Positions 17,073 through 21,056 of a stretch of DNA of 32,000 nucleotides are shown piece after piece. How positions within the stretch are numbered: position 1 is the first letter of the stretch; every line of letters begins with the position of its first letter. Below the pieces are notes generated by a model. That model saw only the letters and a list, made by a program, of their open reading frames with translations. It searched no databases and was not told the origin of the DNA. The stretch spans positions 183,290 to 215,289 of the forward strand of contig NZ_NVQC01000017.1 of the NCBI RefSeq assembly GCF_003044035.1, written 5' to 3'. Origin of the DNA: Candidatus Methylomirabilis limnetica (lineage in GTDB: Bacteria; Methylomirabilota; Methylomirabilia; Methylomirabilales; Methylomirabilaceae). Both the position numbers and the translations under genes were made by a program.

Positions 17073-17447
17073 CTAACTGCAAGCTCCTCCCCCCACCTCT
17101 TCGGCGACGATCCTGAGCAGTCGGTTGGGATCGAACGGCTTACCAAGGAACTCCCTCACCCCGAGGGCCATGGCCTCCCTGACTCGCTGGGCTGTCCCGT
17201 GAGCGGTAAGGACCACCACCTTGACCGCCTCGGCCCGTTTTCGGAGCCTTCTCAGGATCTCCAACCCATCCATCTCCGGCATGACCAAATCCAGAACGAT
17301 GAGGTCGGGAGGCTCTAGCTCCACGAGGGCCAGGGCCTCATGGCCGCTCCTGGCCGCCACCACCTGAAATCCCTCCTGCCCCAGGCTCTCAGTGAAGAGC
17401 CGGCAGAGGTCCTCCCCGTCATCCACCAAAAGGATCTTCCCCCTCAC
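17073..17447 (-). CDS. Stand-alone CheY-like response-regulator receiver domain
   Basis: 124 aa. It has the acidic pocket LLVDDGED, the phospho-acceptor [12 protein letters not shown] (VLTAHG) and K (FLGKPF). The GTG start overlaps the Cdc48-like stop (GTGA). Confidence 0.85.
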
Positions 17448-19588
17448 CTCGCTCCTCCTTTCGCCAGGGCCTTCAGGGCCTCCTCAAGATGAGCCATCTT
17501 CAATGCGTAGTTCCGAAAGCCCGGATCGCTCTCCCATGGGTGAGCCTCCAGGTACTCCTCGATGGCAAACATCGTGGCTCTCCGGCAGATGGCCTCGATG
17601 TCGGCGCCCGAGCGGCCCTCGCTCTGCCGTGCCAGCGCAGCCAGATCCACATCAGGGGCCAGGGGTTTGCCTCGGGTGTGGACCCGGAGGATCTCCAGCC
17701 TCGCTGCTTCGTCGGGCAGTGGTAGCTCGATAAGGAGGTCAAACCGCCCCGGACGAAGCAGGGCGGGGTCCACCATATCCAGCCGGTTCGTGGCGGCGAG
17801 CACCACCACGCCGCGCAGTTCCTCGATCCCGTCCAGCTCCGTGAGGAGCTGGCTGATCACTCGCTCCGTCACGTGCGAGTCTCCTCCCGACCCTCGCATC
17901 GGGGCAATGGCATCGATCTCATCGAAGAAGATCAGGCAGGGAGCCGCCTGCTTGGCTCGTTTGAAGACCTCCCGGACCCCCTTCTCCGACTCCCCCACCC
18001 ACTTGGACATGAGTTGAGGCCCCTTGACGCTGATGAAGTTCGCCTGGCTTTCCGTGGCTGCGGCCTTGGCCAGCAGGGTCTTGCCAGTCCCCGGGCGACC
18101 GTAGAGGAGGATCCCCTTGGGAGGCATAGCCCCGGCGTGCTTGAAGAGGGGAGCGTATTTCAAGGGCCACTCCATGGTTTGTTGTAGCTCCTTCTTGATT
18201 TGCTCCAAGCCGCCGATCGCCTCCCAACGGACGCTGGGGACCTCGATGGTAATCTCCCTGAGGGCGGAGGGCTCCACCTCCTTGAGGGCCTCTAAGAAGT
18301 GGGCCCGGTTGATCCTGAGCTCCATGAGGGCCTCAAAAGGGATGGCGCCCACCTCGAACTCGATCTGAGGGAGGAGAGCGCGCAGCGCCGCCATGGCCGC
18401 CTCCCGGCAGAGGGCCTCCAAGTCCGCGCCCACGAAACCGTGGGTGATCTCGCTGAGCTCCTCAAGGTTCACATCCTCGGCCAATGGCATCCCCCGACTG
18501 TGGATCTCCAGGATCTCCAGCCGACCCTTCTTGTCCGGGATCCCGATGGTAATCTCCCGATCAAAGCGGCCTGGCCGTCGAAGAGCCGGGTCAAGGGCGT
18601 TGGGGATATTGGTGGCCCCGATGATAATCACCTGGCCCCTCCCGCGGAGGCCATCCATGAGGGCCAGGAGCTGAGCCACCACCCGCTTCTCCACCTCCCC
18701 CACCACCGTCTCGCGCTTGGGGGCAATGGCGTCTATTTCGTCGAGGAAGATGATGCTGGGGGCCTGACGTTCCGCCTCCTCGAAGAGTTTTCTGAGCTTG
18801 GCCTCCGATTCTCCGTAGAATTTGTGGATCACCTCCGGCCCGCTCACCGCGAAGAAGCGGGCGTCTGTTTCGTTGGCCACAGCCCTGGCGATGAGCGTCT
18901 TGCCACAGCCGGGTGGGCCTAGGAGCAGCACTCCTTTGGGCGCACCAATCCCCAGGCGTTCGAAGACCTCTGGATACTTCAGTGGGAGTTCGATCATCTC
19001 CCGGACCCGCTGGATCTCCCGGCGGAGCCCCCCGATGTCCTCGTAGGAAACCTTCGAGGCCTCCACAGGGCCCTCGGGCTGGCGGACGCGGAGCAGAGTG
19101 GCGGCTTGGACGATGACAGGCCCTCCGGGCACGGTTTCCAAAACGGTGAACTCCTGAGCCGTGGTGCCGAGGATGGTGGCCCGGATCCGGTCACCGGATA
19201 GCATCGGCAAGCCCTCAATGAGCCGGGCGAGGTAGCGGGTGTCCCGCTCTCCCTTGGTCGGACGCATCGGGGAAAGGGGGGAAAGGGTGAGCCTCGCCGC
19301 CGGCCGGGCCGAGACCTTCGTCACTGTCACTCTCTCGGCCAGTCCCACCTGAGCGTTGGTCCGCGTGAGGCCGTCCACCTGGACGATCCCCTTCCCCCGG
19401 GCTTCTACGTAGGCTGGCAGGAGCTTGGCCACGGTCTGGCGCTTCCCCTGGATCTGAACGATGTCGCCCACCTCGGCGCCAAGGGCCTTCATGTCGTCAG
19501 GATCAAGGCGGGCGAGCCCCCGCCCTACGTCCTTGGGAAGGGCTTCGGCCACCCGGAGGGTGAGGGTTTTCGGAGGCCGCTCTTCCAT
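17444..19588 (-). CDS. Cdc48/VCP/p97-type double-ring AAA+ ATPase
   Basis: About 714 aa from MEERPPK, with an ATGA overlap onto the ArsA stop. The N-domain is Cdc48-like ([40 protein letters not shown]). D1 has [11 protein letters not shown] and [10 protein letters not shown]2 has [11 protein letters not shown] and LIFFDEIDA. Second-region-of-homology arginines are present in both ([20 protein letters not shown]). Confidence 0.9.
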
Positions 19589-20544
19589 CACGCAAGGCCC
19601 CGATCCGTCACGACCACGGGATCCGCGCTGAACCACTGGATGGGAAATAGAATCTCCCTGAGCCGCTGGAGGCCCTTGACCTGCTTGGGACGCGCCAGCA
19701 GTTTGAAGATCGTGAGCTGGGGGAAGGCGTGTTCACACTCCTGAAGCAACCCTCGCTGCTCCTGCCACCGCTCGCAGCAGAAGGGGCAGGCCCCGCCCTC
19801 CGAGGAGACCACGTGGTTCACGACCAGGCGCCGAACGGGGATCTTCAGGCGGTCGAGCTCCCCGACCAGCCGCTGGGTCTCGGCAATGGCCATCGTCTCC
19901 GGGATGGTGACGACGACGAACTCACAGCGGGTGGGGTCGCGGAGAAGCCCTTGGATCTTCTTCACCGCCCGCTTCATGGTGAAGAGGAAGTCATCCGCGG
20001 GCTCGTGGATGTCCCGTCGAGCCAGGCGGGAGACGACGTAGCGGTACTTATACCGCATCCGGGCCAGGACCCGGATCCACTCATCCAGCAGCTCGGGGAG
20101 GGCCAGCAGGCGCAGGGCGTGGCCCGTGGGGGCCGTGTCCAGGATGTGGAAGTCGTACTCGCCCCGATCCATCAGCTCCACCAGCTCTTTAAAGGCCATC
20201 ACCTCGTCGAGCCCGGGGATGGAGAGGGGGAAGAGGTCGTCGATATCTCCCTCGTCCAGATAGGTCCCGGTTTCCAGAATGCGCTTGATCTCCTCGCCAT
20301 GCTCCTCCTTGAACTTCAGGAAGAGCCGCTGGGCCGAGATTTCCAACGCCGAGAGGTTCGCGACCCCTTCGATCTTCTGAACCTCAGGGCCGATCTCCAG
20401 CTCGAGACAGTCGGAGAGGGAGTGGGCCGGGTCGGTCGAAACCAGGAGCGTCCGGCATCCAGCGTCGGCGAGCTGGACGGCCGCGGCCGAGGCACACGTG
20501 GTCTTACCGACCCCCCCCTTGCCGCCGAAGAGGATCAGCTTCAC
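19588..20544 (-). CDS. ArsA/Get3 (TRC40)-family ATPase
   Basis: 318 aa. It has a deviant Walker [21 protein letters not shown], the hallmark switch [18 protein letters not shown], and a Cys cluster CPFCC (Get3-like CxxC). The GTG start overlaps the Hsp20 stop (GTGA). Confidence 0.9.
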
Positions 20545-21056
20545 GCGCTCTTGCCGGCCTTAGCGACAGTGACCTCCAGGATGCCGTTCCGGTAGGAGGT
20601 CTTCAGCGATTCCTGCTTTCCCTTGGCAGGGAGGAGAATCTCTTTGCTGTACTTCCGGTCCTTGCCCTCGGCGGAGATGGTGAGAATGTCATCTTTCAGC
20701 TCTACCCGGACGTCACCGGTATCCACTCCGGGCATCTCGGCAATCACTCGGATGGCCTCGTTCTCATCGAAGACGTCTACCAGCGGCTCCCGCACCTCCT
20801 CGACCACGGCCCCCGCTTCGCCCTTCTTGATGTTGCCGAAGGTCTCGACGGTGGGTTCGCCCCCCAGGCCGACCTTGACGTTGAAGCCGTACACTCCTCT
20901 CAGATCTTTAAGCCGCCCTTTCCCCCTGAGCTCCCCCGTGCGAGTCGTCTCGGTCTTCCCCTCCGCCTCCATCTCCTTGAGGAGCTCGATGAGGTCGCCA
21001 ATTCCCTTGAAGAGGTCGCCGAGGCCGAATCCCGCTCCACCTTTTCGCTCTGTCAT
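20541..21056 (-). CDS. Hsp20/alpha-crystallin-family small heat-shock protein (GvpH-like position)
   Basis: The alpha-crystallin domain reads VIAEMPGVDTGDVRVELKDDILTISAEGKDRKYSKEILLPA...YRNGILEVTV. I set the start at Met 21056 (MTERKGG), preceded by GGGAGGAAG. The ORF track extends to 21104 and would overlap gvpJ. Confidence 0.85.
   Translation of the reverse strand: MTERKGGAGFGLGDLFKGIGDLIELLKEMEAEGKTETTRTGELRGKGRLKDLRGVYGFNVKVGLGGEPTVETFGNIKKGEAGAVVEEVREPLVDVFDENEAIRVIAEMPGVDTGDVRVELKDDILTISAEGKDRKYSKEILLPAKGKQESLKTSYRNGILEVTVAKAGKSA

Follow-up and report, generated by a model that had tools for sequence, protein, structure and literature searches.

What use would a gas vesicle operon have for a small heat-shock protein, a Get3/ArsA-like ATPase and a Cdc48-like unfoldase? 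The question is raised by a stretch of 32,000 nucleotides (nt) from Candidatus Methylomirabilis limnetica (contig NZ_NVQC01000017.1, positions 183,290 to 215,289 of the forward strand; hereafter the window, in whose own numbering all coordinates are given), where the genes for Hsp20, an ArsA/Get3-like protein and a Cdc48-like protein follow one another among gas vesicle (gvp) genes. Our analyses show that the core of this arrangement consists of a specialised Hsp20 and, next in order, a VAT-type Cdc48, whose usual company is a CheY-type receiver and a protein of 204 amino acids (aa), and that in the lineage of the window a homodimer-type Get3/ArsA ATPase has been inserted between Hsp20 and Cdc48. 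We propose, with a probability of about 45%, that the trio belongs to a gas-vesicle-dedicated holdase/unfoldase module for hydrophobic shell proteins of the GvpA/J type. The proposal builds on which genes are present, on their conserved linkage, on a Cdc48 clade of its own, on the intact catalytic motifs and on the clade-specific changes in Hsp20 and in the Cdc48 tail.

Few known proteins are as hydrophobic and aggregation-prone as GvpA. How it stays soluble, how it is inserted into the shell, how collapsed shells are disposed of and whether cells degrade gas vesicles at all have been named as open problems (PMC10903477). In E. coli GvpA aggregates, and its proteotoxicity sets limits to gas vesicles as acoustic reporters (PMC12848028). 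Reviews present GvpN as the only ATPase of the gas vesicle system (PMC9501494, PMC10903477). The presence of ArsA homologs and hsp20 among gvpN/F/L/G/J/K genes has been known since 2010 from several phyla, and for the gvp-linked ArsA and Hsp20 a role in energising or chaperoning some step of biogenesis was proposed (Castillo & Saier 2010, PMC2963123). What appears to be new here is the link of Cdc48 to gvp clusters, which is not prominent in the literature: no relevant report was found on a connection between gas vesicles and Cdc48, between gas vesicles and Get3, or among ArsA, Cdc48 and Hsp20, in a search that did not cover most subscription journals, so that this absence is not proof.

Conservation of the Hsp20-Cdc48 linkage

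The part of the window between 14.4 and 28.2 kb is one large minus-strand gvp operon of about 19 genes, which holds on a single strand five GvpF/L genes, GvpG, GvpK, GvpN, two genes for PF00741 proteins and gvpA, and the Hsp20-Cdc48 module is co-transcribed with them. The Cdc48-like protein served as query against a GTDB set in which each species is represented by a single genome; the best 80 loci (56-66% identity) were retained and searched in turn with all proteins of the window's cluster. Sixty-eight of the 80 loci belong to one Cdc48 clade, and the remaining 12 (14 sequences) are archaeal and have no gvp genes; a neighbour-joining tree sets the gvp-linked clade apart from these non-gvp archaeal Cdc48 proteins with a bootstrap support of 100/100. 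In the available sequence, gvp genes occur at 61 of the 68 clade loci. Hsp20 is likewise found at 61, directly 5' of Cdc48 in 45 and with ArsA between them in 9 more (54 in total), and a GvpF/L gene lies directly 3' of Cdc48 in 47. The recurrent order is 204-aa protein, CheY, Hsp20, Cdc48 and GvpF/L, of which the window presents a permuted version with ArsA inserted. The clade loci come from many phyla, among them Desulfobacterota, Chloroflexota, Acidobacteriota, Planctomycetota, Bacteroidota, Nitrospirota, Bacillota, Myxococcota and Atribacterota; purple sulfur bacteria and two archaea are represented as well.

A first-pass annotation of the window, made from its letters alone, had considered that the Cdc48-like protein might turn out to be an ordinary housekeeping copy adjacent to gvp genes in this genome only; the dedicated clade, with gvp genes at 61/68 of its loci, speaks clearly against this. 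The same annotation had regarded Cdc48 as an addition to GvpN and not a replacement for it, and in agreement with this view both are encoded here and occur together in 45 of the 68 loci.

The distribution of these genes also bears on a different explanation, according to which hsp20-cdc48 would be a general heat-shock or stress pair that merely travels with a mobile gvp island and whose substrates are misfolded proteins in general rather than those of the gas vesicle. Hsp20 adjoins Cdc48 at non-gvp archaeal loci as well (L062, L067 and L068), the window Hsp20 passes the archaeal Hsp20 equivalog, and the clade members L014 and L039 have no gvp neighbours. The archaeal heat-shock regulons of Phr/HSR1 likewise consist of a small heat-shock protein gene and an AAA+ ATPase gene (PMC10653856). 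Against this stand a linkage that extends across many phyla and varied gene orders, with the genes embedded among gvp genes and never on opposite strands, the frequent position of GvpF/L directly downstream (47/68), the fully supported dedicated clade and the changes in Hsp20 that are specific to it. We thus consider a general stress function improbable.

Sequence features of Cdc48 and Hsp20

Family models bear out the identities of the Hsp20, ArsA/Get3-like and Cdc48-like proteins. The Cdc48-like protein (17444..19588, minus strand; 714 aa from an ATG, with an alternative GTG at 19591) is a VAT-type AAA+ unfoldase that passes TIGR01243 with 961.8 bits against a cutoff of 802.65. The Cdc48-type N-domain and the two AAA modules that had been read from its translation are confirmed by CDC48_N (PF02359, 8.3e-26), CDC48_2 (PF02933, 2.7e-8) and two matches to PF00004, to which two lid domains (PF17862) can be added. 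Its best solved relative is the VAT protein of Thermoplasma (5g4f, 2e-231). The Walker A and B motifs, the Arg fingers and the aromatic pore loops of D1 (KFYG) and D2 (KWVG) are intact and conserved across the clade; from these motifs and loops, the protein looks like an active threading unfoldase.

The C-terminus, which ends in ...AKGGAR, lacks an HbYX motif. This motif, which serves for docking on the 20S proteasome, occurs in many archaeal Cdc48 proteins but does not define the family. Its penultimate Y is found in none of the 68 gvp-clade Cdc48 sequences versus 6 of the 14 non-gvp archaeal copies. Other differences between the two groups say little: only 6 positions separate the gvp-linked from the non-gvp clade, and they are not informative, while the N-domain, the part most diverged between the clades, is also the least conserved within each.

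Hsp20 (20541..21056, minus strand; 171 aa) matches PF00011 (1.9e-9, 38 bits against a cutoff of 20.8) and the 'archaeal Hsp20' equivalog NF041800 (159.4 bits against 140), and its ATG start at 21056 is plausible, with GGAGG upstream. The gvp-linked Hsp20 homologs (L002-L075) have in common an N-terminal glycine-rich motif, GLGGLFKGLGxLxxL. At the other end, the C-terminal IXI/V tail, by which small heat-shock proteins (sHsps) build large oligomers, is absent from the window Hsp20 and its gvp-linked homologs, which end a few residues after the last strand, whereas the non-gvp archaeal Hsp20 of L062 and that of L067 retain it (..KKIDVE and ..YKINIE). Directly 5' of Hsp20 lies the gene of a GvpJ/A-family shell-type protein (21073..21366, minus strand; PF00741, 1.6e-17), a class of proteins that is likely to contain the clients of the module.

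The Get3/ArsA-like ATPase and the gene junctions

The single-domain ATPase of the Get3/TRC40/ArsA family encoded between Hsp20 and Cdc48 (19588..20544, minus strand; 318 aa) passes TIGR00345 with 255.9 bits against a cutoff of 135 and matches PF02374 at 2e-75. It has a P-loop of the deviant type (GKGGVGKTT), and both the DTAPTGH switch and the CPFCC cluster reported in the first-pass annotation are present. In the alignment with MjGet3 (3ug6), CPFC falls on CDFC and is thus a CxxC of the Get3 type, a predicted zinc motif; a CxxC, mostly CxFC, occupies this position in 11/11 full-length single-domain homologs adjoining Cdc48, and the third Cys is not kept. Among solved structures, the protein comes closest to Chlamydomonas ARSA1 and to the archaeal Get3 homologs 3ug6 and 3zq6. 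As aligned, the region corresponding to the Met-rich lid is about 9-10 residues shorter than in MjGet3, which has MSGFMKMMKKLLPF there, and is not Met-rich. An identity as arsenical pump ATPase was rejected, the protein being single-domain, 318 aa long and far below the threshold of TIGR04291 (141.7 bits versus 650), and no ars genes were seen among the open reading frames (ORFs) scanned in the window.

The ATPase is much less constant than its neighbours. It lies between Hsp20 and Cdc48 in 9-12 of the 68 loci (9 by strict count) and elsewhere in the cluster, often as a two-domain protein, in about 14 more; it was not seen in the rest. Either architecture, single- or two-domain, can be found in gvp clusters that contain Cdc48. 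Two-domain ArsA proteins of about 630-670 aa stand between GvpF/G and GvpA/J in L032, L028, L069, L055, L035, L043, L075 and L061, and most of the two-domain gvp-linked proteins carry a CxxC in each half; it was this architecture that the 2010 work described. A separate scan of metagenomes based on ArsA retrieved 30 loci (46-98% identity), all in a gvp context; the single-domain type thus occurs only with gvp genes, in 30 of 30 independently ascertained loci, and the gvp-linked copy that the first-pass annotation had left to phylogeny proves to be no ordinary one. Wherever the contig is long enough, these loci show the order Hsp20, ArsA and Cdc48, except for two close relatives of the window's cluster that are natural variants without Cdc48, L090 (ArsA at 4552-5502) and L101, whose ArsA is 78-80% identical and is followed after 19 nt by CheY. 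ArsA is not an obligate neighbour of Cdc48. Its variable presence and the two loci that lack Cdc48 argue against a fixed three-protein complex and point to Hsp20-Cdc48, and not the Hsp20-ArsA-Cdc48 trio, as the conserved functional pair.

A fixed complex had been proposed from the gene junctions, where the first-pass annotation saw three overlaps of 4 nt. Two of them are as it described. At 20541-20544 (minus strand) a GTGA joins the Hsp20 stop (TGA, 20543..20541) to the ArsA start (GTG, 20544..20542), and at 17444-17447 (minus strand) another places the Cdc48 stop over the GTG of CheY, with AAGGAGG a few bases upstream. The junction of ArsA and Cdc48 (19586..19591, minus strand; gcGTGATGgaa) is different: the overlap is TGATG, not ATGA, and the ArsA TGA (19590..19588) shares a single nucleotide with the Cdc48 ATG (19588..19586). 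A 4-nt GTGA overlap exists there only if Cdc48 starts at the in-frame GTG at 19591..19589, and the longest ORF begins at a GTG at 19636. An independent gene caller, which covered contigs with a 100% identical ArsA protein, starts Cdc48 at the ATG, giving 714 aa, and calls both GTGA overlaps too.

Whatever their length, such overlaps are ordinary and lineage-specific. Overlapping junctions account for 8 of the 18 in the operon, whose largest gap is at most 29 nt according to the gene caller, and most of the corresponding gene pairs at homologous loci have a spacer of 2-50 nt between them. Only relatives whose ArsA is at least about 79% identical retain the Hsp20/ArsA overlap, and the limit for the ArsA/Cdc48 overlap is about 83%; below these values, spacers of 5-50 nt or more appear. 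The idea that the overlaps form a special lock was rejected, being at odds with their frequency in the operon and with the spacers of relatives, and neither the fixed stoichiometry nor the physical complex deduced from them is established by an overlap.

The model of the first-pass annotation, a Hsp20-ArsA-Cdc48 complex of fixed stoichiometry, made by translational coupling and combining Get3 targeting with p97 extraction, has some points in its favour, namely the contiguity of the three genes, whose stops and starts overlap both in the window and in its close relatives, the CxxC at the Get3 motif position of single-domain ArsA homologs, and PF17886, which Pfam describes as a Hsp20-like domain fused to some ArsA proteins and for which the window Hsp20 scores just below the threshold (22.0 versus 22.5 bits). 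However, the overlaps are lost at about 65% identity, and the intermediate position of ArsA is limited to the few loci mentioned above, with L090 and L101 lacking Cdc48 altogether. In addition, a hexamer, a dimer and a sHsp oligomer have no obvious common stoichiometry. The tail-anchor logic fares no better, since it depends on ArsA, the less conserved partner, in which the Met-rich lid region known from Get3 appears shortened; besides, the shell proteins of gas vesicles do not belong to the tail-anchored membrane proteins. Of all the explanations examined, we regard this one as the least probable.

Receiver, 204-aa protein and possible control of the module

Immediately downstream of Cdc48 are the genes of a stand-alone CheY-type receiver (17073..17447, minus strand; 124 aa; PF00072, 1.9e-31) and of the 204-aa protein (16454..17068, minus strand). 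The receiver has the residues of a predicted phospho-acceptor site, D9, D10, D53, T81 and K103, in place, as read from its translation, and a CheY gene occurs within three genes of Cdc48 in 28/68 loci. The 204-aa gene is more frequent (45/68). Its product matches no Pfam or NCBIfam family at threshold, and its 365 homologs are all labelled hypothetical. One of these (P0057) is fused to a receiver domain. They have the invariant motifs H11, YQDG, GTE, RD and GxxH, with invariant His, Asp, Glu and Arg. An AF2 model of the protein is confident (pLDDT 87.7), but a Foldseek search of the PDB with it gave nothing significant, the top match being ChaN (2g5g, E=0.23, TM 0.36). Together with sub-threshold Pfam matches to ChaN (0.016) and, in three homologs, to TraB (0.004-0.039), this gives a hint that the protein might be Tiki/ChaN/TraB-like.

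On the minus strand upstream of the operon, a PAS histidine kinase (28573-30078) is separated from gvpA by another receiver domain (28206-28580) and preceded by a NtrC-type sigma-54 activator (30561-31952). A perfect sigma-54 promoter consensus (TGGCAC-N5-TTGCT) is found at 30156..30141 (minus strand), 63 nt 5' of the PAS histidine kinase. Promoter, kinase, receiver and activator likely constitute the regulatory unit of the gvp operon. A scan for sigma-70 promoters and intrinsic terminators found none above shuffle expectation within the operon and none at the junctions of the trio.

A receiver in this position is compatible with a serious alternative, partly overlapping with our proposal, in which the module would serve the regulated disassembly and recycling of gas vesicles. 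Cdc48 would act as a segregase that pulls GvpA from collapsed or unwanted vesicles, with Hsp20 as adaptor and CheY as switch, so that buoyancy is turned off and the shell protein reused or removed. Enzymes of the Cdc48/VAT kind do pull subunits out of stable assemblies. The D1 and D2 pore loops are intact and the proteasome-docking tail is missing, a receiver travels with the module and is even fused to the 204-aa protein in P0057, a PAS kinase is encoded upstream, and the existence of a specific degradation of gas vesicles is an open question (PMC10903477). On the other hand, the trio shares one compact operon with the genes for assembly, so that its products are made while vesicles are being built, and no protease partner was identified, the 204-aa protein giving sub-threshold Tiki/ChaN hints only. 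We see disassembly as unlikely on balance, although it deserves more credit than the general stress pair, the fixed Get3-p97 complex or the regulatory function considered next.

In that last case the module would be a post-translational regulator: steered by CheY, Cdc48 would unfold or remove a regulator of the cluster, in a manner comparable to the lowering of GvpE by GvpD in haloarchaea. The tight linkage of the receiver, the two-component system and sigma-54 activator upstream, and the fact that GvpD is a NTP-binding repressor (PMC9501494) are in line with such a function. Nevertheless, no candidate regulator substrate is conserved beside the module, and the neighbours of Cdc48 (a holdase, J-domain, zinc-finger and Get3-type proteins) suggest bulk hydrophobic clients instead, which makes this possibility highly improbable.

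Other genes of the operon

The first gvp gene of the operon is gvpA (27929..28150, minus strand), encoding the major shell protein, whose GvpA core we recognised by eye in the translation. All genes described below are on the same strand. Downstream of gvpA come two paralogs (27298-27912 and 26640-27287) without any Pfam or NCBIfam match, charged and probably coiled-coil, which might be outer-surface or scaffold proteins. They are followed by a DnaJ-type zinc-finger protein with repeated CxxCxGxG motifs (26354-26692) and by GvpN, the canonical gas vesicle AAA+ ATPase (25424..26344; TIGR02640, 342.6 bits, cutoff 266.8). Just 3' of GvpN, a 58-aa ORF (25241-25417) has, by eye, the look of an AbrB/SpoVT-type swapped hairpin, and among several small ORFs in this region there is a second DnaJ-type zinc-finger protein, again with repeated CxxCxGxG (24476-24877).

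Next is a GvpF/L protein fused to a J-domain (23427..24479; PF06386 and PF00226) in which the HPD motif is present, and then, in this order, two GvpF/L, GvpG, a zinc-ribbon protein, the GvpJ-like protein, Hsp20, ArsA, Cdc48, CheY and the 204-aa protein. Directly 3' of the latter, a further GvpF/L (15651..16454; PF06386, 3.3e-56) has a 1-nt overlap with the upstream stop according to the gene caller, and a GvpA-family protein, a GvpF/L and GvpK complete the operon.

Chaperone parts of this kind are not peculiar to the window. Fusions of GvpF/L with a J-domain containing HPD occur in 17 related loci, directly 3' of Cdc48 in 10, and L003, L004, L006, L008, L019, L020, L028, L033, L036 and L049 are among the loci with such fusions; homologs of the DnaJ-type zinc-finger proteins are common in related gvp clusters. 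A J-domain attached to GvpF/L implies the recruitment of Hsp70 to a GvpA-binding protein.

A proposed mechanism and its weight

How could these proteins work together? In the holdase/unfoldase mechanism that we favour, Hsp20 would hold the exposed hydrophobic faces of GvpA/J-family shell proteins that are unassembled or mis-assembled. By means of its aromatic pore loops, the Cdc48 hexamer would thread these proteins and so extract them from faulty assemblies or aggregates, with no proteasome involved. The Get3-like ATPase and, through Hsp70, the J-domain-GvpF/L fusion may shield the released hydrophobic protein and hand it to the assembly machinery. The receiver would probably tune this activity to whatever signal the PAS histidine kinase upstream perceives. 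As for its origin, the module would most likely derive from an archaeal type of sHsp-Cdc48 pair and have spread together with gvp clusters. We infer the identity of the client, the order of the hand-off, the role of CheY and this origin from the genes and their company.

Several points weigh against this mechanism. Both the client and the interactions are putative. Expression along with the assembly genes would suit quality control but does not set it apart from other roles. The tree is a neighbour-joining one, built from 82 sequences ascertained by their similarity to the query. Three members of the clade (L014, L018 and L039) have no gvp genes in the available sequence, and L090 and L101 keep ArsA, CheY and the 204-aa gene without Cdc48, which is therefore dispensable for keeping the cluster. 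To our knowledge, the well-studied producers Halobacterium, Anabaena, Priestia megaterium and Serratia all make vesicles without the module, hence it would be accessory.

A bolder version, which we hold to be possible though doubtful, would make the VAT-type Cdc48 a segregase specific to the gas vesicle as an organelle, provided with a tail-less sHsp as adaptor, a hand-off through the Get3-like protein and the J-domain-GvpF/L fusion, and a switch formed by CheY and the Tiki-like protein, and extracting GvpA from aggregates or collapsed shells. If this were true, it would be the first dedicated client system of Cdc48 in bacteria and would offer a mechanism for the quality control or turnover of gas vesicles. 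Even in its more modest form, the Hsp20-Cdc48 module, with or without the Get3-like ATPase, the J-domain fusions and the receiver, supplies concrete candidates for the solubility, insertion and disposal steps that are still in search of proteins. Its parts could be added to engineered gas vesicle clusters. The module also suggests a client through which a bacterial Cdc48 could be studied by experiment and hints that a sHsp can serve as Cdc48 adaptor.

Comparison with known systems

The closest precedent is the set of gvp-linked ArsA and Hsp20 proteins described in 2010. The ArsA proteins in that work are two-domain and about 600-640 aa long, and Cdc48 is not mentioned (Castillo & Saier 2010, PMC2963123). 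By contrast, the window has a single-domain ArsA of 318 aa with a CxxC of the Get3 type, wedged between Hsp20 and Cdc48.

The archaeal pair of a sHsp and Cdc48/VAT is made of the same protein families as the module, which has VAT-like KFYG and KWVG loops, and adjacency of Hsp20 and Cdc48 is also seen at non-gvp archaeal loci. Nevertheless, the Cdc48 of the window belongs to a separate clade and has no HbYX, and its Hsp20 differs by a new motif at the N-terminus and by the absence of the IXI tail. Unlike the archaeal heat-shock pair, this type of module is mostly bacterial and located inside gvp operons.

With the eukaryotic GET system (Get3/TRC40) and p97, the similarity is one of homologous folds, including the P-loop, DTAPTGH and CxxC on one side and the N-D1-D2 architecture on the other. 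However, the gvp module involves no membrane, no ubiquitin and no Get1/2/4/5, the Met-rich lid of its Get3-like protein appears reduced, and adjacency of ArsA and Cdc48 is not a conserved feature of gvp loci.

In haloarchaea, accessory proteins keep members of the A-J-M family soluble, much as we propose here: GvpH prevents the aggregation of GvpM (PMC6107691) and GvpF binds GvpA (PMC6107691, PMC9501494). The Hsp20 of the window differs from GvpH in that it matched no GvpH model at E<=0.01. Moreover, apart from GvpN, no ATP-driven unfoldase has been described in the haloarchaeal system.

The proposed working logic is the same as in the bacterial IbpA/B-DnaK/DnaJ-ClpB system, in which the sHsp is a holdase that co-aggregates with its clients and an AAA+ motor extracts them with the help of a J-protein and Hsp70; in the same way, gvp clusters carry J-domain and DnaJ zinc-finger parts. 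There are, however, clear differences. The motor of the gvp module is of the Cdc48/VAT type with an N-domain, and not ClpB, its J-domain is fused to the GvpA-binding GvpF/L, and the whole system appears to be dedicated to a single organelle.

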